NCBI GenBank assembly: GCA_016187125.1
Contig: JACPKF010000001.1
Location: forward strand, 302,178 to 366,177
DNA: 64,000 bases
Direction: 5' to 3'
Source of the DNA: Candidatus Saccharimonadota bacterium
Lineage (GTDB): Bacteria > Patescibacteriota > Saccharimonadia > Saccharimonadales > UBA10212
In this document: one piece after another, positions 3,335 to 59,265 of the stretch
How the letters are laid out: each line of letters opens with the position of its first letter
How positions within the stretch are numbered: position 1 is the stretch's first letter
Made by a program: the position numbers and the translations under genes
The notes under the pieces: generated by a model
Database searches by the model: none
What the model was told of the DNA's origin: nothing
The model's input: the letters and a program-made list of their open reading frames with translations, nothing else

Positions 3335-4153
3335 TTATGTTTTAGGTAGAACCCGGTTACCCAAAACCCGACCTTGAGTTTCTTGTTGTATTCTTTCTAC
3401 TTCACCCAAAAGACCAGTTTGTCTCACTCCTTCTGGATCCAACCGCCTAGCAACTAAGAATGATAAAAGTCCTTGCAAGCTAAGTACGTTAACAAGTTCT
3501 CGTGCGCTATCACCAAATTTTGGTTTAAGTACTTTCTCGGCAGTTTGTGCATTAATTTTTCCAGAGAAATTATATCTACTTGAGAAAGAATCCAATAAAC
3601 TCTGTGCGCTTGGCGTTACATTATCTTCTCCTCTGAGAGGATAAAGCCAGTGATTTGCTCGCCAAATATCGTCATGGGTCGTAGCACAAACATGCGGTGC
3701 CGATGTATCACGAATCACTACAGATAAATGCTTAGCAACTTCAGAATGAGCTAAGGCTCGAGAATATTGTCGCCTTCCATCGCTACCCGAGTATCCATAG
3801 TAATCTACATTATCAACGATAATTAAGCCTTGGTTTCCAACGGCTTCAGCGAAGTGGTTCAAAACACTGGTTGCATTTGAAGCACCAGCTCTGCTTCCAC
3901 CACTAATTTGAGCTTTTAGAGTTAAAGTTGGCATTTCTAAAGCATCATTTCTGGCCAACCTGGCAATATCCGATACAAGATGTGTTTTACCAGCACCAAC
4001 ACTAGCTTCAATCAAACAACTACCATTGGCAACAACTAGATCCATCACATTTTGGGCATCAACTGGGAAGAAACCTGGATGCTCATCCAAACCAGTCATC
4101 GGTGCAATGATGCAATAGCCATGCCCATTTCTCATATCTTCAAATGACTTCAT
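3335..4153 (-). CDS. orphan P-loop NTPase
   Basis: 272 aa. Walker A is EASVGAGKTH and Walker B-like is GLIIVDNVD. No further family recognised. Confidence 0.55.
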   Translation of the reverse strand: MKSFEDMRNGHGYCIIAPMTGLDEHPGFFPVDAQNVMDLVVANGSCLIEASVGAGKTHLVSDIARLARNDALEMPTLTLKAQISGGSRAGASNATSVLNHFAEAVGNQGLIIVDNVDYYGYSGSDGRRQYSRALAHSEVAKHLSVVIRDTSAPHVCATTHDDIWRANHWLYPLRGEDNVTPSAQSLLDSFSSRYNFSGKINAQTAEKVLKPKFGDSARELVNVLSLQGLLSFLVARRLDPEGVRQTGLLGEVERIQQETQGRVLGNRVLPKT

Positions 4154-4516
4154 AAAACCTCAAAAATAAAAACGGGACTGTTGTAGTCCGGTTCCTCTTA
4201 ATTGCAATTTGTACTTTTTGGCCAAGCGCGGAACTACAGCATTTTCTCGTCGAGGACAAGAATAATTCTGCTTAGTTCAAGCTTGCGCACCATGGCAACA
4301 ATACTACATCCTAGATAACAGCAATACAAGCTTAATTGGCAAGAAAAATAATTCCCAATACCAGAGCCAGCCCCAAAAGCCCGGTAACAATAATTCCCGA
4401 CCTACCCATAACAGTTCTACTATACACGCAAAAGGATCTTGCAAAAAGTTGCTCACCTCTGTTATACTATTCTCAGTACCTTGAGTTATTACAATCATTC
4501 CCTCTTTGCAGCTTAA

Positions 4517-4631
4517 CAATTTTGTGAAAACACGCATTGCAGGTTTTTACAAAATTGAGAGGAGAAGCATAGCGCTAAGTTGAAGCTTTTGCCCCATAGG
4601 CAAAACAAGACAGGCGCGTAGGCTTCGACGA
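4517..4631 (+). promoter_or_regulatory. stable-RNA promoter/leader cassette (copy upstream of tmRNA)
   Basis: CAATTTTGTGAAAA-N-TTTTTACAAAATTGAGAGGAGAAGCATAGCGCTAAG, then hairpin TTTTGCC-ccat-aGGCAAAA, then GGCGCGTAGGCTTCGACGA immediately before GGGGCTGA. Confidence 0.65.
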
Positions 4632-5227
4632 GGGGCTGAATTTAAGCTCGACGTTGGACTTTAACAACTAGTTTGCAGGTCGTGCGCACTGAACGTGGGA
4701 CCTACCACAGGGTGTTTTGTCAGGGCCGAAATTGAAACAATTTCGAGCGAAACAGGTTTTTTCGATTGAAGCGTAGCTAAGGCTTACGTTGAATGAGAAA
4801 AAACCGGTTGCAGCCGAAACTTGGACAATTTTTAGGCGACTAAATACCGTGTGGTAGGCCCCTAATCCGGTGCAAACCCAACAAATGCAATAGCATTTAT
4901 TTCGGGATTCGGTCTTTTGGCCGCGTTCCGAGCGCGAATTTTGGGCCTTTTCGAAGGTTTTAAATTCGCACCAGCTTACGCCTGAGGGCCTAAGCCACGC
5001 TTACCACGACATCAGATAGTGGCTGCGGCGTGTCATATTATCTGGTTGCGCAGGTTTTTCTTTCCATAAAATCTGTTAAGTTTTAGGAATAGGAGACGCG
5101 ACTTTTTGGCCATTTACCGGCCGTGTTTCCGAACTAGGACGTAAGTCCTATCCTAAATGGCCTAAACCTGTAGACGACTAGTTGAATAATCCGACGGACG
5201 TGGGTGTGATACCCACCAGCTCCACCA
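4632..5227 (+). ncRNA. ssrA: tmRNA (ssrA), unusually long (~596 nt)
   Basis: The 5' end GGGGCTGAATTTAAGCTCGACG and the 3' end GGACGTGGGTGTGATACCCACCAGCTCCACCA form the tRNA-Ala-like acceptor/T-arm. An internal open frame (4866..4982) ends ...GFKFAPAYA followed by TGA at 4983-4985, which is a plausible tag. The resume codon could not be fixed. Confidence 0.85.
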
Positions 5228-5468
5228 CGTAAAATTGCCATCTGTAAAACTTCGCTTTGCTCGTTTTAACATAGGGCAATCACGTGGCGCAGCCCTTTGC
5301 GCATGGCAATTTTACGTGGGACGTGGTCGCTTTAGCGACTTTACGTCCCAAGATCTCGTGGCAAGGCCATGAGATGAATGTTGATGAAGATTTTGAGTGC
5401 CCCGTGGCAAACGAAGTGAGTTTTACGGGGCTTTTTCGCAATTTCCTACATGGCGCAGCCTTTTGCCC

Positions 5469-5726
5469 ATGCACTATGTTTACGTGCTTCAATCAGAACT
5501 AACAGCGGGCTTTTATATAGGATACTCTCTCGACCCGGAACAAAGACTGGTTGGTCATAATTCGGGCAAAAATATATCGACAAAAGCGGGGTGTCCGTGG
5601 AGATTAATATATTTTGAAGCTTATACGGATAAACGTGATGCTCTTAGCCGCGAGAAATTTTTGAAAAGCGGAAGTGGCAGAATTTATCTGCATAAACAAC
5701 TTCGGCATTTTCTGGACACTCCCTAA
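5469..5726 (+). CDS. GIY-YIG domain nuclease family protein (short, stand-alone)
   Basis: Starting at the internal Met: MHYVYVLQSELTAGFYIGYSLDPEQRLVGHNSG...PWRLIYFEAY...ALSREKFLKSGSG. This matches the small GIY-YIG family pattern. Confidence 0.75.
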   Translation: MHYVYVLQSELTAGFYIGYSLDPEQRLVGHNSGKNISTKAGCPWRLIYFEAYTDKRDALSREKFLKSGSGRIYLHKQLRHFLDTP

Positions 5727-5816: not shown

Positions 5817-6476
5817 TTAAGACTTACTAGGCAGAAGCTTAGTGGGAAAGCCGCCAAATGTTCGAATGTCTGGATAAACCTGCGTCATCCATACCTTATT
5901 CGGAGTTTTGTTTAGAAGCCAAACAACCTTAAAGGAGTCTGTTGGTACTATTATTTTCTCGGCGATAGGGGCGACATCCGTTTCCATTGAGATTTTATCT
6001 ATCTCTTCCCTTTTCAAATATGGGCCGATTTCAGGGATTACTATCAAACCAGTTTCACCAGTTTTAAACTTCTTGCAAATTGCGTTTATTTCGTCAGCCA
6101 ATTTAGAAGTAAAATCTGACCGAAACTCGCGGCCAACTCTCTTAATTTGAAAAGCGTGACCGGTATTTCTGTACTCGTTTAGTGGTCCAGGGACAATGGC
6201 GAAGTCTACGATGGTGTCCTTTTTAAGATAGTGTCTAAGAACTTTTTGTATATGATCCAAATTCTTCCCATCGAAGTTCGGCATAAGTCGCTTTAGCTCA
6301 TCTTTAAGTTGAAAACTTACAAAATAAGGTTTGTTGTACTTGTGCTTATAAATTCTGCAAGCCCAAACACTCACAGCCAGCTCTAGGTTTTCGCTTGACT
6401 GTTTATGTTCTGCGAAATTAAGAAACTCAACTATCTGCTCTTCAGAGATGAAAAATGCTGCTGACGGTAATTCCAT
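5817..6476 (-). CDS. hypothetical protein (AT-rich accessory gene)
   Basis: 219-aa ORF with no recognised motifs. It appears visibly more AT-rich than the flanking core genes. Confidence 0.5.
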   Translation of the reverse strand: MELPSAAFFISEEQIVEFLNFAEHKQSSENLELAVSVWACRIYKHKYNKPYFVSFQLKDELKRLMPNFDGKNLDHIQKVLRHYLKKDTIVDFAIVPGPLNEYRNTGHAFQIKRVGREFRSDFTSKLADEINAICKKFKTGETGLIVIPEIGPYLKREEIDKISMETDVAPIAEKIIVPTDSFKVVWLLNKTPNKVWMTQVYPDIRTFGGFPTKLLPSKS

Positions 6477-18508: not shown

Positions 18509-18551
18509 GTCTTGCGACTATTTTATCCTATCATAAGGAGTTGACACCTGT

Positions 18552-20820: not shown

Positions 20821-22722
20821 TTATGGTGAGGGCGGGATTTGACTAGGGGGTTGCTTTGGAGCTGGTTGTTCAGGTGCAGGGGCTGGGGCTGGGGCTGGTG
20901 CGGGTGCGGGTGCGGGTGCGGGAGTTTGGGGAGTTTGGGGAGTCTGAGGAGTTTGGGGAGTTTGGGGAGTCTGAGGAGTTTGGGGAGTTTGGGGAGTCTG
21001 AGGAGTTTGGGGAGTCTGAGGAGTTTGGGGAGTTTGGGGAGTTTGGGGAGTCTGAGGAGTTTGGGGAGTTTGGGGAGTCTGAGATGGGGCGGGAGCAAGT
21101 TGAGTAGGGGTCTCTGCAGGAGGAGCAGGTTTAGCGGCCGCCTCGCCAACTTGGAATTTTGCTACACATTCAGCCAGTCCTTCCACAGGTACAACGGATC
21201 CGTCATGGAGCCTAAATACGGCTCTGCCGTCATTGATAGCGTTAGCATATTTATGGCTGATGCCTTGCAATTGCAATTTTCCAGCCTCGGTTGAAGGATC
21301 AATCCTGACCGACTGACCATCACCAAAGTCAAGAATGATTTCCGGTTTTTTGACATTATTGAACTCGTTAGTTCTGAGGCTGAATGTGATTTCTTTTTGT
21401 CCGGTCGCAGCTGCTTCCGCAGCAGTACACTTGGCTGTCGCAGCAGGACTCGGGGTAGGCCCTGGTTTGGGAGTAGGTGCCGGTTTAGGTTTCGGTTGCG
21501 GCTTGGGTTTGGGAGTAGGTGCCGGTTTAGGTGGCTTAACCTCTTTTTCAACGTTTTTGAGTTCTACTGTAAGATCAACAGTTTTTGGATTAGAGTCGCC
21601 GTGTATGTTCAGATACACTAAGTGGGGATTTTTCTCATCGTAGTCCGGCAAATCAGTTTCATCAATAACTAATCTTGAGCCGTCTGGACAAGATGGACCT
21701 CTCTGAGGGTTTCTGAGTATTTTAACTAGCTTGTCTAAGATAAGTACGCCGTTTCTATAGCATCTTTCACGTGCTGAAAATACACCACTAGGCGCTGGTA
21801 TTGGAAACTCACGAGTAGTCACCAATGTTTTGTGAAATTCAGGAGTAACAGGAGCGGGCACCTTGGCGGCTGGACCTTGTGGACCGGGTTTGCCCTGTTT
21901 ACCCTGTGGGCCAGTTTTGCCAGCTGGACCCTGTGGGCCAGGTTTGCCAGCTGGACCTTGTGGACCGGGTTTGCCCTGTTTACCCTGTGGGCCAGTTTTG
22001 CCAGCTGGACCCTGTGGGCCAGGTTTGCCTGAAGGGCCAGGTTTGCCTGGAGGACCCTGTGGGCCAGATTTGCCGGGTGCAGAAGGGGTTTGTGTTTTTT
22101 TGACAGGAACGTAGACCCATACAGGGACTTCTTTGCCTGTCCGTGGATTTGAACTCTCATCACTAGCACCCTCGCCGACAATTCTTTCAACTCTTTTGGA
22201 GCCTTCACGAGGGGTAAGAGAAAAACCTTCAGGAAACTCTCCTTTCAAGGAATCGATTCTAACCCATTCTGTAGAACCATCTGGCAGAGTTTTGTTACCA
22301 ACCGGTACAATCTTGCCATCCTTACAGCCTGTGTTTTGAACTACGGCACCACCAGCAAGGGTAGCCCGGCCGAAATGATTTTTTACATATCCTAGTACAG
22401 ACTCATCAACGGTTGGAATTTTATAGAATCTCACGACATCATCTAAAATACCTTTTTGCCGCCAGTGATTAACTAAAATTTCTGCCGTCGGTGCAAAGCC
22501 GCCGCAACGATCAGCCAAGAGACTAGGCGTAGCTTCTTTCAAAGGAGCGGCTTCAGCATTGCCGCTAAATTTGCCAACACCTGCTATAGTAGCAACGGCT
22601 GCTAGCCCACTAGCCATAAACATCGCTAGCTTACCTCTGCGGTCGGGAGTGGCTGTCGGTTCAGTCTCAAAAGCAGGAACCAGAGTTAAGACTGGTGCAG
22701 CTTCCATAGTAGGATGATTCAC
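20821..22722 (-). CDS. secreted collagen-like / TPQ-repeat surface protein
   Basis: 633 aa with a GTG start 10 nt after AGAGGA. It has 23 uninterrupted G-X-Y triplets, PKPxP tracts, DFGDGQS (PKD-like), 18 TPQ repeats and a (PA)n tract. Confidence 0.8.
20923..21084. repeat. 18 tandem 9-bp repeats (AGTTTGGGG / AGTCTGAGG) encoding (TPQ)18
   Basis: Counted directly. The two unit variants are interspersed. Hexamer repeats GGGGCT/GGTGCG (about 20877-20922) lie adjacent. Confidence 0.95.
21868..22074. repeat. collagen-like G-X-Y coding repeat (23 triplets)
   Basis: [69 protein letters not shown]. It contains an internal duplication of about 63 nt. Confidence 0.9.
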
Positions 22723-26961: not shown

Positions 26962-27004
26962 CCAATGAAAATGTCTCAACCTTTGGCTGAGACATTTTCA
27001 TTGG
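26962..27004. terminator. 17-bp stem hairpin abutting the 3' CCA of tRNA-Lys
   Basis: CCAATGAAAATGTCTCA-acctttggc-TGAGACATTTTCATTGG. The tRNA CCA is part of the stem. Confidence 0.65.
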
Positions 27005-27078
27005 AGGGCCCACTGGGACTTGAACCCAGGACACTCTGCTTAAGAGGCAGATGCTCTAACCAACTGAGCTATGGGCCC
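27002..27078 (-). tRNA. tRNA-Lys (anticodon CTT), CCA encoded
   Basis: The reverse complement is GGGCCCATAGCTCAGTTGGTTAGAGCATCTGCCTCTTAAGCAGAGTGTCCTGGGTTCAAGTCCCAGTGGGCCCTCCA. Confidence 0.9.
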
Positions 27079-27194
27079 TCGTTGCGACTTACGCGCCTAC
27101 CTCGTTTTACATAATCAGTAAAAACTTCAGTCTAGCGCTACGAGTGCTCCTCTCAATTTTGCAAAAACCTGCACTGCGTGTTTTTGCAAAATCG
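27079..27194 (-). promoter_or_regulatory. stable-RNA promoter/leader cassette (tRNA-Lys copy)
   Basis: In gene orientation: CGATTTTGCAAAAACACGCAGTGCAGGTTTTTGCAAAATTGAGAGGAGCACTCGTAGCGCTAGACTGAAG, hairpin TTTTAC-tgattat-GTAAAA, then GGCGCGTAAGTCGCAACGA. It differs from the 58571..58686 copy by about 1 nt over about 105 nt. Confidence 0.7.
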
Positions 27195-27260
27195 TTTAGC
27201 TGCAAAGCCATCAAATACTAGCACGTTCACCCCTGTTTTGTGAAGCATTATGTACAAAAT

Positions 27261-38276: not shown

Positions 38277-38375
38277 ACAAAAAGGTGCGGGACCAATCCA
38301 CTGCCTGTCCGCCACAGTCCGCCTTGACGGACGTCGGCGGAAGCTACGGGCGCACACAGGTCTCATTTTAACAGA

Positions 38376-42437: not shown

Positions 42438-42483
42438 TCATTTCCTAATAGATTATGCGATCGCATAATCTATTAGGAAATGA
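42438..42483. promoter_or_regulatory. 46-bp perfect palindrome upstream of the HTH-MurA gene (candidate operator)
   Basis: TCATTTCCTAATAGATTATGCGA|TCGCATAATCTATTAGGAAATGA. It is followed by TTGACG-16 nt-TATCAT and then the ATG at 42550. Confidence 0.6.
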
Positions 42484-42549
42484 TAGTTATGATCGAAGCC
42501 GACGATTTACTTGACGCTTATATCACGTGTGATATCATCATAGGGTTTT

Positions 42550-44073
42550 ATGCACGAAACTAATCAGAAAATTGGCCGGCTTATTTACCAAATCCGCCAA
42601 GAGCGAGGCTTAACTCAAGCCGCTTTTGCTAAAAAACTGGGTACTAGCCAATCAGCCGTTAATCGCATTGAGCATGGCAAGCAGAATTTAAGCCTCGATA
42701 CTCTAGGCCGTATTAGCGATGCTTTGAACAAACAAATTGTCAGCCTTGGCGGCCAGGGTGTAAACCTACGTATTGAAGGTGGACAGGAGCTTAAGGGCGA
42801 AGTTACGCTGAAAAAGAGTAAAAACGCCGCGGTGGCGATTTTGTGCGCTAGCTTGCTCAATAAGGGTACGACTCATCTTAAAAACGTGCCGCGGATTGAA
42901 GAAGTAAACCGGATTGTGGAAGTTTTAACCAGCATTGGAGTCCACGTGCGTTGGGTAGGCACTAGCGATATGGAGATAAAAGTGCCAGCCAGGCTTGACC
43001 TGGATAATATAGACAAAGCGGCGGCCCGTAAAACCAGAATTGTAATCCTGTTGGCCGGCGCCTTGATGCACGACCTGAGCGAGTTTAAAATTCCTTATGC
43101 CGGCGGCTGCGAGATAGGTAAGCGCAGCATCCTGCCGCATATTTACGCTTTGGAAGAATTCGGCGTGCACATTGAGGCCCATAAAGGCAATTACCATATC
43201 AGCGTCAAGCGGCACCTGCCTGATGGCCCGGTAATTTTATATGAATCCGGTGACACCACCACCGAAAATGTTATTTTGGCAGCCGCCCGCATGGAAGGCG
43301 AAACTGTTATAAAAATGGCCAGCGCCAATTACATGGGACAGGAGCTGTGTTTCTTTTTACAAAAACTCGGCGTCAAAATCGAAGGTATCGGTACAACCAC
43401 GCTTCGGATTAGAGGCCTCAAAAATATTAAGCGCCATGTGACTTACTGCCCAAGCGAAGATCCGGTAGAAGCCATGACTTTCATTGCCGCGGCTGTTACT
43501 ACCGATTCTTCTATTACTATTCGGCGGGCGCCAATTGAATTTTTAGAACTTGAGCTTTATAAGCTAGAAAAAATGGGTCTAAAATTTGATGTTTCCAAAA
43601 CATACAAAGCCGAAAACGGCTCGACTGATTTAGTTGATATAACCATTCATAAACACAATGGCGAACTGCAAGCGCCCGAAGAAAAAATTTACGGCCGCCC
43701 CTACCCCGGCCTAAACATTGATCACGTACCCTACTTCGTGCCGATTGTGGCTTGTGCCAAAGGTCGCAGCCTGATTCATGACTGGGTCTATGAGGACCGG
43801 GCTCTGATGTATACCGAGATGAAAAAGATTGGCGTTGATTTAGAGCTGGCTGACCCGCACCGAGTTTTTATAAACGGCCCGACACAGTGGCGGGCGGCGG
43901 ATGTTGTAGCTCCCAGTGGCCTGCGCCCGGCGGTAATTTTGCTGATCGGCATGTTAGCCGCCCCCGGCGTCTCGATGCTGCGCAATGTCTATACCATCAA
44001 CCGCGGCTACGAAGAACTAGCCGCCAGGTTAAATGATCTGGGTGCTCAGATTAGCGTCATGCACGACATCTAA
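42550..44073 (+). CDS. murA: XRE-HTH domain fused to UDP-N-acetylglucosamine 1-carboxyvinyltransferase
   Basis: 507 aa. Residues 1-65 form an HTH: IGRLIYQIRQERGLTQAAFAKKLGTSQSAVNRIEHGKQNLSL. The remainder is MurA-like: LRIEGGQELKGEVTLKKSKNAAVAILCASLL...NVPRIEEV, with catalytic loop YAGGCEIGKRSILPHI. Confidence 0.8.
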   Translation: MHETNQKIGRLIYQIRQERGLTQAAFAKKLGTSQSAVNRIEHGKQNLSLDTLGRISDALNKQIVSLGGQGVNLRIEGGQELKGEVTLKKSKNAAVAILCASLLNKGTTHLKNVPRIEEVNRIVEVLTSIGVHVRWVGTSDMEIKVPARLDLDNIDKAAARKTRIVILLAGALMHDLSEFKIPYAGGCEIGKRSILPHIYALEEFGVHIEAHKGNYHISVKRHLPDGPVILYESGDTTTENVILAAARMEGETVIKMASANYMGQELCFFLQKLGVKIEGIGTTTLRIRGLKNIKRHVTYCPSEDPVEAMTFIAAAVTTDSSITIRRAPIEFLELELYKLEKMGLKFDVSKTYKAENGSTDLVDITIHKHNGELQAPEEKIYGRPYPGLNIDHVPYFVPIVACAKGRSLIHDWVYEDRALMYTEMKKIGVDLELADPHRVFINGPTQWRAADVVAPSGLRPAVILLIGMLAAPGVSMLRNVYTINRGYEELAARLNDLGAQISVMHDI

Positions 44074-46426: not shown

Positions 46427-46608
46427 CCCACTTCGCTCCGGATTTGCACCGGAGCTTCGAGGGGCAAGCAATTTTATTAATCGCTGCTTGTCCTCCGAAG
46501 CTTGAGTGTAAACGAAAGCGAAGGAGGAAACTACGGGGGCGCTATCAAGAGATTATATCAGATATAAATGGAATTGAACCGACTATCTAATATTGATATA
46601 ATGGTATA

Positions 46609-47274
46609 ATGAACAAATATAGAGCAGAGGCGGAGAAGTTGAGAAAAGCGGGCTATTCATACAACATGATTACCAATGCTCTAGGTATATCCAAAGGGAC
46701 TATGAGCTATTGGTTTAAGGATAAACCATTCACACCTAATAAGAAGGTCCTTGAAAGAATTAAATATGGTCCGATAAAATCTGGTGCCAGGAGTCATAAT
46801 AGACGAGTTAAAGAAATTGCAGACTTAAAAGAGCTGGGCAGAAAAGAGCTTGGCGAAATATCAAAGAGGGACTTATGGCTGCTTGGATTAGGATTGTATA
46901 TTGGTGAGGGCAGCAAGACAACCGAGAGTATAAGGATCATAAATTCGGATCCGGCCATTATTATTACTGGTATTAGGTGGCTAAGAGAAATTTGTAATCT
47001 ACCACTAAATAATATCGTTATTAGACTTCATATCTATCCTGATACAAATAAACAAGAGGCTATTAAATTCTGGCGATCTATAACTGACATTCCGAAGAAG
47101 AATTTTCGCAATCCAACAATTGATCATCGAACGGATAAAAAATCAAAAAAAACTGGTAAATTGCCTTACGGTACAGCACACATTATGGTCATTACAAATG
47201 GTGATCCAGAAAAAGGGGTAAAACTGTATAGAAGAATTAATGGCTGGATTGCCGGAGCATTAAATCAGCTATAG
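46609..47274 (+). CDS. HTH + LAGLIDADG-like homing-endonuclease-like protein (tentative)
   Basis: 221 aa, AT-rich. N-terminal HTH: AGYSYNMITNALGISKGTMSYWFK. WLLGLGLYIGEGSK resembles a single LAGLIDADG motif. It ends 13 nt before tRNA-Gly. Confidence 0.4.
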   Translation: MNKYRAEAEKLRKAGYSYNMITNALGISKGTMSYWFKDKPFTPNKKVLERIKYGPIKSGARSHNRRVKEIADLKELGRKELGEISKRDLWLLGLGLYIGEGSKTTESIRIINSDPAIIITGIRWLREICNLPLNNIVIRLHIYPDTNKQEAIKFWRSITDIPKKNFRNPTIDHRTDKKSKKTGKLPYGTAHIMVITNGDPEKGVKLYRRINGWIAGALNQL

Positions 47275-47287
47275 AATAAGTCGAAGA

Positions 47288-51599: not shown

Positions 51600-51658
51600 G
51601 CAAAACCTCTAGTTTCATCTGTTAAACAGTGCTATAATCACCTCTGCTACTGAATACC

Positions 51659-51773
51659 AATTTTGTGAAGTTGTGCATTGCAATACTTCGCGAAATTGAG
51701 AGGAGAAGCATAGCTATAAGCCGAAGCTTTTGCCACTATTGGCAAAACTAGGCAATAGTGCAAGTTTCGACGT
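51659..51773 (+). promoter_or_regulatory. stable-RNA promoter/leader cassette (tRNA-His copy)
   Basis: AATTTTGTGAAG-N-CGCGAAATTGAGAGGAGAAGCATAGCTATAAG, hairpin TTTTGCCA-ctat-TGGCAAAA, then GTTTCGACGT before the tRNA. Confidence 0.65.
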
Positions 51774-51849
51774 GGTGCCTGTGGCTTAGTGGTTAAAGCG
51801 CCGCTCTGTGGAGGCGGATACGAGAGTTCAATTCTCTTCAGGCACCCCA
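51774..51849 (+). tRNA. tRNA-His (anticodon GTG) with encoded G-1 and CCA
   Basis: G-GTGCCTGTGGCTTAGTGGTTAAAGCGCCGCTCTGTGGAGGCGGATACGAGAGTTCAATTCTCTTCAGGCACCCCA. Confidence 0.88.
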
Positions 51850-53374: not shown

Positions 53375-53415
53375 TTTACTCCTATTTGTTAAAATCAGCC
53401 TGGTGTCTGATTAAC

Positions 53416-53530
53416 AATTTTGCAAGGTCGTGCGTAGCAGACTCTTGTAAAATTGAGAGGAGAGGCATAGCGTTAGGTCGAAGCTTTTGGCGATGTAGCC
53501 AAAACGAGACTTACGCGCAGGCTTCGACGA
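53416..53530 (+). promoter_or_regulatory. stable-RNA promoter/leader cassette (tRNA-Pro CGG copy)
   Basis: AATTTTGCAAGG-N-CTTGTAAAATTGAGAGGAGAGGCATAGCGTTAGG, hairpin TTTTGGC-gatgta-GCCAAAA, then GCGCAGGCTTCGACGA before the tRNA. Confidence 0.65.
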
Positions 53531-53607
53531 CGGAGCGTGGCGCAGCTTGGTAGCGCGCATCGTTCGGGACGATGAGGTCGCCGGTTCAAATCCGGCCGCT
53601 CCGACCA
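53531..53607 (+). tRNA. tRNA-Pro (anticodon CGG), CCA encoded
   Basis: CGGAGCGTGGCGCAGCTTGGTAGCGCGCATCGTTCGGGACGATGAGGTCGCCGGTTCAAATCCGGCCGCTCCGACCA. Confidence 0.9.
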
Positions 53608-53899: not shown

Positions 53900-55231
53900 T
53901 CATAGGTTCTGAGTAACGCCTGCAAACAGTATTTCTTGTGTTCGACTATCAGTAATTGCATAGAAGAATGGCTGGTTAACTTCCATATAGAAAGTTTTTT
54001 TCTTTACGGGCTCTGCAGTTGCGGAAAGTTCGACAATTTCTACACTCGTAATAGCTGCAGCTTCGGTGCCTTTTTCATCAACGTCTATATAAGATTTGTG
54101 TTTTACCTTACTAATTTTTAGATTTTTGTCTATGCCACTAAAATCCGCGTTATCCTCGAAAGCAGTTTTCATACCAAGACCTTTTAAAGTCTCATTCAGC
54201 TCCTTTTCATATGTTGCTTTGAATTTAGGCATCCAGAGCGTACCTTCGGTGTCTTGGTAGCTGGCCAGCCACTTGCTCCAGTTATTTAGGTCCAAGCTGG
54301 CGACAAAAGATTGAAGATTCTTTGGTAAAAATACTTCCATCCTAAAGTCCCCGCTTTTGCCATACGGAAGAACGACACTTTGGAAATCACTTGTTTCCAG
54401 ATATGACATTTTGTCATGTCTGTACATGAATGGACGGTTCTGTTTTGCAGACGATGAGGAATGGAAATCTTTGTTTTCTGTTAGTTTTTCATTAAATTTC
54501 GACGACCATTCACCTTTAAAATACATGGCATTGATAAGAAACATCATGCTATCACTATTAACTTGGTCTACTATGGTCGGGATTTTACCTTTGGTCTTTT
54601 GATTCACCCAGCTATTAATCTGATCAGCGGCAGCCGGACTATTGAAATCTAGAGCCAAGGCTTCAGCCTGATAGAAGGTTTTTACGTTACTTATAAAGTC
54701 ATTTTTAGGATGAAGGCTTTGCCTGTACCACAAGGAGTTCGCTGCCGAAATTTCAACCCCGGAAGATTGATCATTTAATATTTTTATTAAACCCAGGCTC
54801 TGCTGATTGAGTTCTGAGGTGCTTAAGTTTTTTAGCTGAAGAACTCTAGTCATTTCGTCCTTAGTGGTTGAGTTGGCTCCGTTATAAGCCATGGATAGAG
54901 CTAGCGAAATGCCAGCTGGGGAAATAAAAAAGTTATTTTTAGCTTCTTTTTTACTAAGGGACTTGATGAGATTTAATCCAAACTCATCATGGGCATTTTG
55001 AAGATCTTTGGGCGTCTGATAAGTTGACGCTAGCTCCGACTTACCGTGTGAATTCTTATTTGGGCTGTCTTGCTTGGATTGATAGACCCGGTAACCGGCC
55101 AATCCCATGATTGCAATTATCATGATTATAATTAAGTGCTCGAAGATAGCCATGCCGCTTTGGTTCTTTGTGGTCGGCTTTGTTTGGCTAATCATAAAGA
55201 TAATTATCATGGCCGGCAGATCTTTAGTCAA
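53900..55231 (-). CDS. serpin family protease inhibitor with N-terminal membrane anchor
   Basis: 443 aa: NFFISPAGISLALSMAYNGA, hinge/RCL EKGTEAAAITSVEIVELSA, C-terminal FYMEVNQPFFYAITD. Confidence 0.8.
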   Translation of the reverse strand: MTKDLPAMIIIFMISQTKPTTKNQSGMAIFEHLIIIMIIAIMGLAGYRVYQSKQDSPNKNSHGKSELASTYQTPKDLQNAHDEFGLNLIKSLSKKEAKNNFFISPAGISLALSMAYNGANSTTKDEMTRVLQLKNLSTSELNQQSLGLIKILNDQSSGVEISAANSLWYRQSLHPKNDFISNVKTFYQAEALALDFNSPAAADQINSWVNQKTKGKIPTIVDQVNSDSMMFLINAMYFKGEWSSKFNEKLTENKDFHSSSSAKQNRPFMYRHDKMSYLETSDFQSVVLPYGKSGDFRMEVFLPKNLQSFVASLDLNNWSKWLASYQDTEGTLWMPKFKATYEKELNETLKGLGMKTAFEDNADFSGIDKNLKISKVKHKSYIDVDEKGTEAAAITSVEIVELSATAEPVKKKTFYMEVNQPFFYAITDSRTQEILFAGVTQNL

Positions 55232-58493: not shown

Positions 58494-58570
58494 TGGTCGG
58501 GGATGCCAGATTTGAACTGGCGACCTCCGCGTCCCAAACGCGGCGCGCTACCAGACTGTGCTAATCCCCG
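58494..58570 (-). tRNA. tRNA-Pro (anticodon TGG), CCA encoded
   Basis: The reverse complement is CGGGGATTAGCACAGTCTGGTAGCGCGCCGCGTTTGGGACGCGGAGGTCGCCAGTTCAAATCTGGCATCCCCGACCA. Confidence 0.9.
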
Positions 58571-58686
58571 TCGTCGTGACTTACGCGCCTACCTCGTTTT
58601 ACATAATCAGTAAAAGCTTCAGTCTAGCGCTACGAGTGCTCCTCTCAATTTTGCAAAAACCTGCACTGCGTGTTTTTGCAAAATTG
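58571..58686 (-). promoter_or_regulatory. stable-RNA promoter/leader cassette (tRNA-Pro TGG copy)
   Basis: Nearly identical to 27079..27194 (1 mismatch seen in the shared ~105 nt). Confidence 0.7.
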
Positions 58687-58710
58687 GAAATAAACCAAAT
58701 AACAGACTAA

Positions 58711-59265
58711 TTATACCTTAACTTTTTCTTTGATTATCTCAACGAGTTTGGGAAATTTTTTATATCTCGGGTCGATGTGGGAACTGAAGTGCTGTCCACC
58801 CGGAATTAATACAAACTCTGCCTCCAATTTTTCGGCTATCCATTTGGCTCCTTCTAGTGGGCAGTATGGATCATTATCGGAGTGAATGACGATAAACTTT
58901 TTAGCTTTTTGATTTAGCCTTTCGTAGTCAAAATCAATGTCAACACCTTTTAAATCTTCCCTGCCTAAATCACCACGGAAGGTGCCCACCAAAACCGCAG
59001 TATCAACTTTAGTGCCAGCTGGCAGAGCTTGCAGCAAACCTATAACGGCTACCGCACCCGACGAGTGACCTATAACCAAATTATCTTGAAAATCCCAGCC
59101 GCTGTCCAGCAGAAACTTATTGTACCGGGCGATGTTTGGCTCTTGGGCCTGAGGTAAATCTGGCACCCAAACTTCAAAAGCTAATTTTTCTAGCTCCTTT
59201 TTCAGCCAAGGAAACCAGTTACTGGCATGGCTCGAGCCTGTTCCATGAAGAATGACGGCTTTCAC
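58711..59265 (-). CDS. YdeN/RBBP9-type serine hydrolase (alpha/beta fold)
   Basis: 184 aa: AVILHGTGSSHASNWFPWL, GHSSGAV, IHSDNDPYCP. Confidence 0.7.
   Translation of the reverse strand: MKAVILHGTGSSHASNWFPWLKKELEKLAFEVWVPDLPQAQEPNIARYNKFLLDSGWDFQDNLVIGHSSGAVAVIGLLQALPAGTKVDTAVLVGTFRGDLGREDLKGVDIDFDYERLNQKAKKFIVIHSDNDPYCPLEGAKWIAEKLEAEFVLIPGGQHFSSHIDPRYKKFPKLVEIIKEKVKV

Follow-up and report, generated by a model that had tools for sequence, protein, structure and literature searches.

The 64 kb stretch of DNA analysed in this study (hereafter the window) is chromosomal DNA from Candidatus Saccharibacteria (TM7, Saccharimonadales), and its genes are of a housekeeping nature (PcrA, RNase Y, MurA, MurB, MurD, PGK and SHMT). 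ARAGORN identified nine scattered tRNA genes in the window, all with an encoded CCA. Directly 5′ of five of these, and of a 596 nt transfer-messenger RNA (tmRNA) gene, we found one copy each of an element of ~116 nt, here termed the cassette. The cassette is real and statistically solid, and it is apparently undescribed: scanning the window against Rfam 15 returned the nine tRNAs only, with the cassette matching no family, a scan of positions 4300–5500 at E≤10 gave a single chance-level match over the focal cassette copy (rliD, 14 bits versus 50), and no description of the cassette was found in the literature on tRNA leaders, pre-tRNA and structured RNAs of Saccharibacteria and the candidate phyla radiation (CPR).

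The focal copy (positions 4517–4631, plus strand, 115 nt) stands directly 5′ of the tmRNA and matches our covariance model over its full length with 116.8 bits. The other plus-strand copies lie at 51658–51773, before tRNA-His(GTG) (G-1 at 51774, tRNA at 51775–51849), and at 53415–53530, before tRNA-Pro(CGG) (53531–53607), while the minus strand carries copies at 2116–2233 before tRNA-Val(CAC) (2040–2115), at 27079–27194 before tRNA-Lys(CTT) (27002–27078) and at 58571–58686 before tRNA-Pro(TGG) (58494–58570). All six can be aligned over about 116 nt. The pattern ATTTTG-N27-AAATTGAGAGGAG matches the window five times against 0.05 expected, and with filters off a covariance model based on 24 copies returned exactly six full copies in the 64 kb (82–117 bits), the next match (18.6 bits, 42439–42496) being an unrelated perfect palindrome. 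Since the unfiltered model gives only these six, the tRNA genes for Glu, Arg (two genes) and Gly lack the cassette, and no protein gene in the window is preceded by one. An initial annotation of this DNA had already placed the six copies to within 1–2 nt, had noted that the other four tRNA genes lack the cassette and had put its end at the mature 5′ end of the five tRNAs and the tmRNA, all of which agrees with our results; the check that it proposed for copies before protein genes found none directly upstream on the same strand. Its estimate that the Lys and Pro(TGG) copies differ by about 1 nt in 105 was too low, as 4 of 116 positions differ, two of them in the last 7 nt.

The gene behind the focal copy is a tmRNA (4632–5227, plus strand) that was called neither by ARAGORN nor by Rfam at the gathering score. 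Its acceptor stem pairs a 5′ GGGGCUG with CAGCUCC-ACCA at 5217–5227 (with a G3·U pair), Rfam matches its 3′ part (T-arm and CCA end, E = 4e-7, when positions 4300–5500 were scanned at E≤10), and it is alignable along its length with the tmRNAs of two loci from the wider searches described below, L003 and L116, the former of which exceeds the Rfam threshold (67 bits versus 47). The window tmRNA falls under the threshold because of an insertion of ~168 nt, located at about 4697–4865 relative to L116. The L003 tmRNA has an insertion of ~150 nt at a different place from that in the window. No group I intron was detected in the window tmRNA, and the tag frame, if read by eye from a GCA at ~4873, would encode a long tag (~37 aa) with ...FAPAYA at its end.

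Further copies were gathered from a species-genome collection and from metagenome contigs, and all copy counts outside the window refer to those among the matches listed. One scan of the species genomes produced 29 loci, comprising 16 true loci (L001, L003–L006, L008, L010–L013, L019, L020, L022–L024 and L029) and 13 chance matches, with true matches in about 11 GTDB species genomes. Exact pattern matches came from ten metagenome-assembled genomes named Saccharibacteria or Saccharimonadales, one labelled Patescibacteria group and one labelled Binatia; the locus in the last of these (L029) contains the same tRNA cluster. The scan of metagenome contigs, for which the pattern left the 5′ arm of the first hairpin of the cassette free, gave at least 120 loci. 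With nhmmer and the covariance model, Saccharibacteria genomes and metagenomes yielded at least 105 full copies, of which 101 are distinct. Most were retrieved with patterns containing AAATTGAGAGGAG plus ATTTTG or CGACGA, and about 8 were found independently of the patterns. In the nhmmer count a tRNA begins 0–3 nt after 77 of 106 copies, covering about 30 anticodons; nine copies adjoin tmRNAs, several precede intron-containing or edge-truncated tRNAs, and about eight are orphans with nothing recognisable behind them. At cassette-bearing loci, 77 of the 173 tRNA genes with enough upstream sequence (45%) have a full cassette. A phage origin was considered and rejected, the single pattern match on a viral contig being a chance match with neither a model match nor a tRNA.

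RNAalifold and single-sequence folding concur in resolving the cassette into two hairpins, H1 and H2, separated by one A. H1 is a single hairpin of ~15 bp with arms CAAUUUUGnnnnnnn and nnnnnnnCAAAAUUG, laid out as CAAUUUUG plus seven variable nucleotides, a loop clamped by GC-N3-4-GC, and seven further variable nucleotides plus CAAAAUUG. At the base of H2, GAGGAG lies opposite CGACGA with two G-C pairs (alignment positions 47–127 and 50–124), and the purine-purine oppositions beside these pairs could be tandem sheared G·A pairs. Above this base are a covarying helix of 3–4 bp (GAA/UUC, GGA/UCC, GAG/CUC and others) and internal loops, and higher still a GCC/GGC helix beside another GA/GA opposition, followed by a variable apical stem-loop. 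H2 occurs as two sequence types, A (CAUAGCG...CUUUUG) and B (GCGACCUGAGGCUG...UAAG), and single genomes hold both; in the window the Val copy is of type B and the other five are of type A. The focal copy folds as two hairpins with a minimum free energy of -42.6 kcal/mol (z = -4.6). Its H1 (4517–4557) pairs the 5′ arm CAATTTTGTGAAAAC with the 3′ arm GTTTTTACAAAATTG and has a GC-N3-GC clamp in the apical loop; the linker A and GAGGAG, near-invariant across copies, occupy 4558–4564; and H2, long and irregular with purine-rich internal loops, spans 4559–4631, including the apical stem (4587–4593/4599–4605) and the terminal CGACGA (4626–4631), the last nucleotide of which is tmRNA position -1. All of these elements are on the plus strand. 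In the centroid fold of the Pro(CGG) copy, H1, H2 and the cloverleaf stay separate modules.

Conservation is highest in the basal 8 bp of H1, in the linker A and where GAGGAG faces CGACGA; the linker A and GAGGAG are unchanged in 98–101 of the 101 distinct copies, a figure to which the search pattern contributes. Variants at the base of H2 comprise A50-U124 (L136), G50·U124 (L142), G47·U127 (L006) and A44 together with C129 (twice), and these few lend thin support to the predicted pairing of GAGGAG with CGACGA. Compared with a kink-turn, the H2 base (GGAG/CGAC) and the GCC-GA...GA-GGC loop are compatible with tandem sheared G·A pairs at the level of sequence; the order that a kink-turn proper requires is reversed, with the additional nucleotides of the 5′ strand placed 3′ of its GA. 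A small ORF (open reading frame) beginning TTG-AGA-GGA was rejected on account of early stops and frame shifts between copies, and so was a hammerhead ribozyme, given that 99 of 101 copies have C in place of the U of CUGA, no GAAA is found in the required place and Rfam gives no match.

Statistical support for the two hairpins was obtained with and without the model. In a MAFFT alignment of 24 copies made with no model, 93.3% of cells at paired positions were paired compared with 85.7% in shuffles, double-change cells numbered 57 versus 21, and none of 500 shuffles was as good. For the 101 distinct copies the corresponding values were 94.7% versus 83.5% and 305 versus 97, again with 0 of 500 shuffles as good, and sliding the register by 1–3 columns lowered pairing to 28–48%. 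Changes on both sides were found at 6 of the 15 pairs of H1 in the 24 copies and at 9 of 15 in the 101 copies. Among the 48 type-A copies, 14 of 19 H2 pairs show compensatory changes, apical stem included; at pair 35–55, for example, GC occurs in 35 copies and AU in 12. A compensatory UUUCG/CGAAA pair of arms was also present in the outer H1 stem, which otherwise seems invariant, of a copy that the patterns had not selected (L029, 634–751). The basal 13 pairs of H1 contain 87 G·U cells against 13 A·C cells, an excess that would be reversed if read on the opposite strand and that thus points to selection of pairing on the tRNA strand; H1 pairing is most simply explained by selection as sense-strand RNA.

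These results bear directly on the model proposed in the initial annotation, in which box 1, a factor-binding or UP-like site, and box 2, with its -10-like CAAAAT, formed a promoter, and only the part after GAGAGGAG was a leader. The two boxes are the two arms of H1, so that a larger covarying hairpin had been read as two DNA boxes. The compensatory changes in the arms and the G·U excess are left unexplained by a double-stranded DNA promoter, and the TG and the key A of the hexamer vary in step with the opposite arm; His-type copies even lose that A (GCGAAATTG). The spacing between the boxes is 22–23 nt, which confirms the earlier remark that it is too long for a -35/-10 pair, and a promoter scan called no site at either box. 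By spacing and covariation we also ruled out a -35/-10 pair using box 1, a TGn-extended -10 in box 2 and a sigma-54 GG-N10-GC promoter. There are points in favour of a promoter within the cassette: box 2 contains A-rich hexamers (CAAAAT or AAAATT), sometimes after TG; the box-2 region looks like the sole -10 element at tRNA-Arg(TCT) of L005, where H1 stands alone with TATAAAAT 18 nt before +1, and at tRNA-Gly of L142, which has TAGAAT-TAAGAGGAG without H1; and a promoter of its own would explain the orphan copies. Taken together we regard this model as very improbable. The leader part of the earlier promoter-plus-leader reading stands, and was understated, and its covarying hairpin (TTTTGCC/GGCAAAA and variants) reappears as the apical stem of type-A H2, with the covariation upheld in the larger set of copies; the promoter part is not borne out.

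Candidate promoters were found instead upstream of the cassette, as expected if transcription starts there. A -10-like hexamer (TAnWRT) ends 7–30 nt upstream of 54 of 89 stand-alone copies (61%, against a background of 9.5% at the same loci, p = 2e-32), most commonly at a spacing of 16–17 nt, and the upstream -10 boxes are TGn-extended in 22 of 60 cases. A -10 box was present in only one of 12 copies situated ≤80 nt behind another tRNA; this pattern, with upstream boxes enriched where needed and absent behind tRNAs, also argues against a promoter inside the cassette. All six window copies have a -10 box 14–23 nt upstream. For the focal copy the candidate is TACAAT at 4490–4495 on the plus strand, which would serve both cassette and tmRNA and has a -10-like hexamer at the same position in orthologous tmRNA loci; a second promoter candidate, TTGCAA-18-TATACT, lies before it at 4439–4468. 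The remaining boxes are TATAAT at 2248–2253 (Val, 14 nt upstream), TGC-TAGTAT with its hexamer at 27215–27220 (Lys, 20 nt), TGC-TATAAT at 51633–51638 (His, 19 nt), TGT-TAAAAT at 53390–53395 (Pro(CGG), 19 nt) and TATAAT at 58710–58715 (Pro(TGG), 23 nt). At L136 a 16S rRNA gene and an intrinsic terminator are followed by TGGTACAAT and, after 18 nt, by a cassette with tRNA-Ile and then another cassette with tRNA-Ala. From the -10 boxes, transcription most likely starts upstream of the whole cassette and not inside it, a point that the initial annotation had marked for checking. We consider it highly probable that the cassette is transcribed and forms a structured RNA leader, rather than acting as a promoter.

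In cassette-bearing genomes the tRNA genes that lack a cassette are preceded by the same promoter, its -10 box only 10–11 nt from +1, which implies native leaders of only about 3–4 nt; examples from the window are found at 47262–47287 and 18509–18545. The string TATAAT-cACCTCTGTT is frequent at such genes and also precedes many cassettes. With the same promoter and a very short native leader at the non-cassette tRNA genes, the cassette looks like an insertion between the leader and +1. The recurrent form of the string is TATAAT-(c/t)ACCYCTGTT, and its reverse complement AACAGRGGT was observed in the spacers of other stable-RNA promoters, rnpB included; across the whole window AACAGRGGT is not enriched (26 matches versus 21.7 expected). 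The rnpB genes of L034 and L065 share the promoter type of the non-cassette tRNA genes (TTGnnA, 17 nt containing CAGGGGT, TGC-TAnnAT) and likewise lack a cassette. The two window tRNA-Arg genes (TCG and TCT; 38277–38372 and 46427–46560, both minus strand) have in common another long leader, rich in GC. It opens right after the -10 box with the tRNA-like 5′ fragment GCGCCC(C)CGTAG(C/T)TTCC, shares GGACA(G/A)GCAG further on, and may be either another leader family or what is left of a partly duplicated tRNA.

At its other end the cassette is joined to the mature RNA with precision. CGACGA ends exactly at -1 in 61 of 77 tRNA-linked copies and is one nucleotide off in 12 more, five of which are tRNA-His copies that become exact once G-1, part of the mature tRNA, is counted. 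The nine tmRNA copies likewise abut the mature 5′ end on the gene strand. Leaders of non-cassette tRNAs end in unrelated sequences, so RNase P does not demand CGACGA and the conservation of this motif belongs to the cassette. A canonical class A RNase P RNA was identified 2 kb from a cassette in L034 (12023–12370, 261 bits), where a standard promoter, TGC-TATAAT, lies 10 nt before the gene and the gene itself lacks a cassette, and a class A RNase P RNA is apparently also present in L065 (~3850–3980); RNase P RNAs of CPR bacteria have been reported as sometimes divergent (PMC8172020). By eye we saw no complementarity between the L034 RNase P RNA and GAGAGGAG, and a comparison, again by eye, of the 3′ trailers of the ten window genes revealed no common sequence that could pair with the cassette.

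The distribution of copies is patchy even at orthologous tRNA genes. Gly(TCC) has a cassette in L005 and none in the window or L029, while Arg(TCT) has one in L029, L061 and L074 and none in the window. Mosaic copies occur within a genome, the Gly and Pro copies of L005 being alike at the H2 apex and unlike in H1, and near-identical copies stand at unrelated tRNAs (the Lys and Pro(TGG) pair described above). Truncated derivatives that keep the 3′ ...CCGACGA, some of them consisting of no more than the 3′ strand of H2, precede tRNAs for Glu (L148), Asp (L048), Gly (L142) and Ser (L038); H1 alone is found in L005 at 2033–2073, 16 nt before tRNA-Arg(TCT), and an H1-less mini-cassette, TAGAAT-TAAGAGGAG...TTTGACGA, before tRNA-Gly in L142. 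In L136 (2943–3500) a cassette stands before a split tRNA-Ile gene, the 5′ half and matching 3′ half of which enclose a complete second tRNA-Ile; the inner gene is flanked by the inverted repeat TTATTGAAAATTTGGTGG / CCACCAAATTTCAATAA and is thus nested in the anticodon loop of the other. The 16S gene upstream in L136 carries a group I intron. At L024 (5635–6300) a cassette precedes a tRNA with anticodon CAT that is missed by ARAGORN and has a group I intron in its anticodon loop (Rfam, 68 bits, 6044–6252).

Such patchiness, together with the mosaic and near-identical copies, the orphan and truncated copies, the cassette joined to a foreign tRNA-Ile 5′ half in L136 and the restriction of true matches to about 11 GTDB species genomes, would suit a repeat of selfish or mobile nature, moving from one tRNA gene to another and persisting because its removal by RNase P makes it harmless. 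Its structure would then serve propagation, by recombination on tRNA-body homology, by an IS200/IS605-like single-strand mechanism or through RNA, and one-strand hairpins tolerant of G·T also fit a single-stranded DNA transposition intermediate. Repetitive extragenic palindromic (REP) sequences and the bacterial interspersed mosaic elements (BIMEs) that contain them, miniature inverted-repeat transposable elements (MITEs) and the palindromic elements of IS200/IS605 resemble the cassette as multi-copy hairpin repeats of ~100 nt that are mosaic, leave truncated derivatives and are patchy at orthologous sites. They differ from it in position and in kind: the cassette is strictly at tRNA -1 and on the same strand, with more than 90% of copies there, which no 4-nt target preference explains, and it shows RNA-type covariation in long irregular helices, the ~30 bp irregular H2 with its conserved purine loops being typical of RNA and not of the end hairpin recognised by a transposase. 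No transposase was found among 18 of the larger window ORFs scanned, the rest of the genome not having been searched, no target-site duplication was seen, no copy was found in viral contigs, and the 5′ flank shows just a weak preference for T, no position exceeding 0.58 bit. On balance we consider a purely selfish origin improbable.

The orphan copies raise a different possibility. They are found at full model strength in L042 (366–481), L008 (1925–2038), L011 (826–941) and L148 (607–721), as well as in L046/L075 and L079/L085, and score 124.5 bits in L042 (the best of all copies), 112 in L008, 106 in L011 and 103 in L148. The end of the L042 orphan and the stop codon of an ABC-2 permease ORF convergent with it are 9 nt apart; behind the L008 orphan is a region of ~130 nt predicted to close with a terminal stem, and behind the L148 orphan ~75 nt are followed by two strong terminator-like hairpins. 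Sequences behind the L008 and L011 orphans match nothing in Rfam. Orphan cassettes may be small RNAs of a new kind, and the released cassette could itself be the functional product, a multi-copy small RNA or ribonucleoprotein (RNP) for which the downstream tRNA or tmRNA acts as a 3′-end processing signal, with RNase P making a precise ...CGACGA-OH end that closes the GAGGAG/CGACGA helix. The need for a defined 3′ end predicts exact abutment to +1, the orphans are conserved as well as the linked copies, the terminal stem predicted at L008 could serve as an RNase P substrate, the conserved core would form a compact closed structure in the free RNA, and a 116 nt leader for each 76 nt tRNA is costly in a reduced genome. 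Yet one genome may hold two divergent H2 types and freely varying apical loops, so that a conserved single-stranded sequence for targeting is missing; tRNA genes retain truncated derivatives, and the L042 orphan is not followed by any obvious substrate for RNase P. We therefore view a functional released product as rather unlikely, though less so than a selfish repeat.

Precise RNA ends created by tRNA-processing enzymes are known from MALAT1-mascRNA, mitochondrial tRNA punctuation and the E. coli 3′ETS-leuZ, and there too the freed piece could function; those are single loci or 3′-side fragments, whereas the cassette is a 5′-side module at dozens of tRNA genes per genome. Its closest everyday counterparts are the ordinary leaders of pre-tRNA, pre-tmRNA and pre-4.5S RNA that RNase P removes. 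Like them it lies on the gene strand, immediately 5′ of +1 and downstream of a candidate sigma-70-type promoter, in a lineage with canonical class A RNase P RNA, and tRNAs and tmRNA are treated together. Ordinary leaders are, however, short, unconserved and gene-specific, whereas the cassette is one ~116 nt covarying structure at about 45% of tRNA genes in many genomes, with its last six nucleotides nearly invariant.

A promoter-proximal RNA of two hairpins with conserved sequence at the helix bases, placed on stable-RNA genes and recurring in tRNA spacers and beside the rRNA-linked tRNAs for Ile and Ala, also invites comparison with regulatory leaders, whether riboswitch-like, protein-dependent or of the put/boxBAC kind, that would tune elongation or stable-RNA maturation to the state of the cell. 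The boxB-boxA-boxC elements of rrn operons and the put RNAs of phage HK022 resemble the cassette in having a promoter-proximal hairpin and conserved sequence, in being repeated at stable-RNA loci or spacers and in being similar within a genome. No boxA-like sequence was seen in the cassette, however, rnpB lacks a cassette, and antitermination elements are not fixed to an RNase P site as the cassette is; processive antitermination is hardly needed for 76 nt genes. Nor is there an expression platform with a terminator or alternative pairing, as H1 is followed by AGAGGAG and no U-tract, and the exact abutment to +1 would stay unexplained. Stem I of T-box RNAs, which has a K-turn at its base and a long irregular hairpin and binds tRNA, is similar in its long irregular hairpin, G·A-rich base motif, purine-rich internal loops and tie to tRNA. 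The cassette, unlike a T-box, precedes tRNA genes and not aminoacyl-tRNA synthetase or amino-acid genes, its apical loop is unconserved, and it lacks a specifier for the tRNA, a T-box sequence, a terminator/antiterminator and any T-box match in Rfam. A T-box or guide RNA function was also rejected after comparing the H2 apex and the H1 loop with the downstream tRNA or anticodon, which showed no relation across about 100 copies. The cassette thus fails the defining tests of the boxBAC/put, T-box and MITE-like families, and a regulatory leader seems to us a poor prospect, below the selfish repeat in plausibility and only slightly better than the internal promoter.

The interpretation that we prefer is that the cassette is a transcribed, structured module of ~116 nt that is removed by RNase P and whose protein-binding junction acts in cis. 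It would be co-transcribed with the tRNA or tmRNA and, as expected from general tRNA maturation, cut by RNase P where it meets the mature RNA. A three-helix junction would arise at the cleavage site from the H1 base, the linker A and GAGGAG/CGACGA together with the acceptor stem, and this junction would be a sequence-specific binding platform, most likely for a protein; with conservation peaking at the H1 base, the linker, GAGGAG/CGACGA and the cleavage site, a protein-bound three-helix junction is the most likely mechanism. Action would be in cis on the handling of the precursor, for example by gating or assisting RNase P cleavage and by shielding the precursor 5′ end, and the leader would be freed as a discrete by-product of ~125 nt.

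Several observations count against this interpretation. We infer the transcription start, the RNase P cleavage and any protein partner alike. The non-canonical GAGGAG/CGACGA pairing is based on very few informative variants, and the apparent invariance of the conserved motifs is inflated because the retrieval patterns fix them. The shuffle statistics overstate independence because the copies are paralogues and orthologues, and the larger alignment was fitted to the model. Since 55% of tRNA genes, and also rnpB, do without it, the cassette is not required for RNase P processing. Finally, about 8% of copies are orphans that score like linked ones, which is awkward for a purely cis-acting tRNA leader. 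We give the interpretation in its entirety an even chance of being correct. A bolder version, which we put forward tentatively and think possible rather than probable, is that of a new tRNA-linked RNA class of ~116–125 nt, with two hairpins and a G·A-rich junction and equimolar with about half of the tRNAs and with tmRNA, that gates RNase P via a dedicated protein, adding a layer of control in this reduced-genome lineage, or works as an abundant trans-acting RNP. In this version the module might also pass from one tRNA gene to the next by way of an RNA intermediate, and the exact -1/+1 junction would then be accounted for.

Three further features of the window were noted. The palindrome matched weakly by the covariance model is a perfect one of 42 bp (42440–42481; ATTTCCTAATAGATTATGCGA followed by TCGCATAATCTATTAGGAAAT) about 70 nt upstream of an ORF at 42550–44073 that encodes MurA with an N-terminal helix-turn-helix (Xre/antitoxin-like) domain, and in view of this domain the palindrome may be an autoregulatory operator. 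The minus strand encodes a 633 aa protein (20821–22722) that matches collagen-like (Scl/Lcl-type) repeat adhesins weakly and below threshold, and a serpin of 443 aa (53900–55231). For a reduced genome, surface or secreted proteins such as the collagen-like-repeat candidate and the serpin are unusual.

Saccharibacteria are ultra-small bacteria with reduced genomes whose RNA biology is little known, and pre-tRNA leaders are normally regarded as short disposable sequence. The reading of the cassette given here corrects the placement of the promoters. Its covariance model marks tRNA, tmRNA and new non-coding RNA genes missed by standard tools, the window tmRNA being one example, and its approximately 100 covarying copies make a clean case for a new RNA-database family. 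If it is true that the cassette acts on maturation, it would represent a previously unseen control of tRNA and tmRNA supply, and if the excised piece is functional, it would perhaps be among the most abundant small RNAs of these cells.

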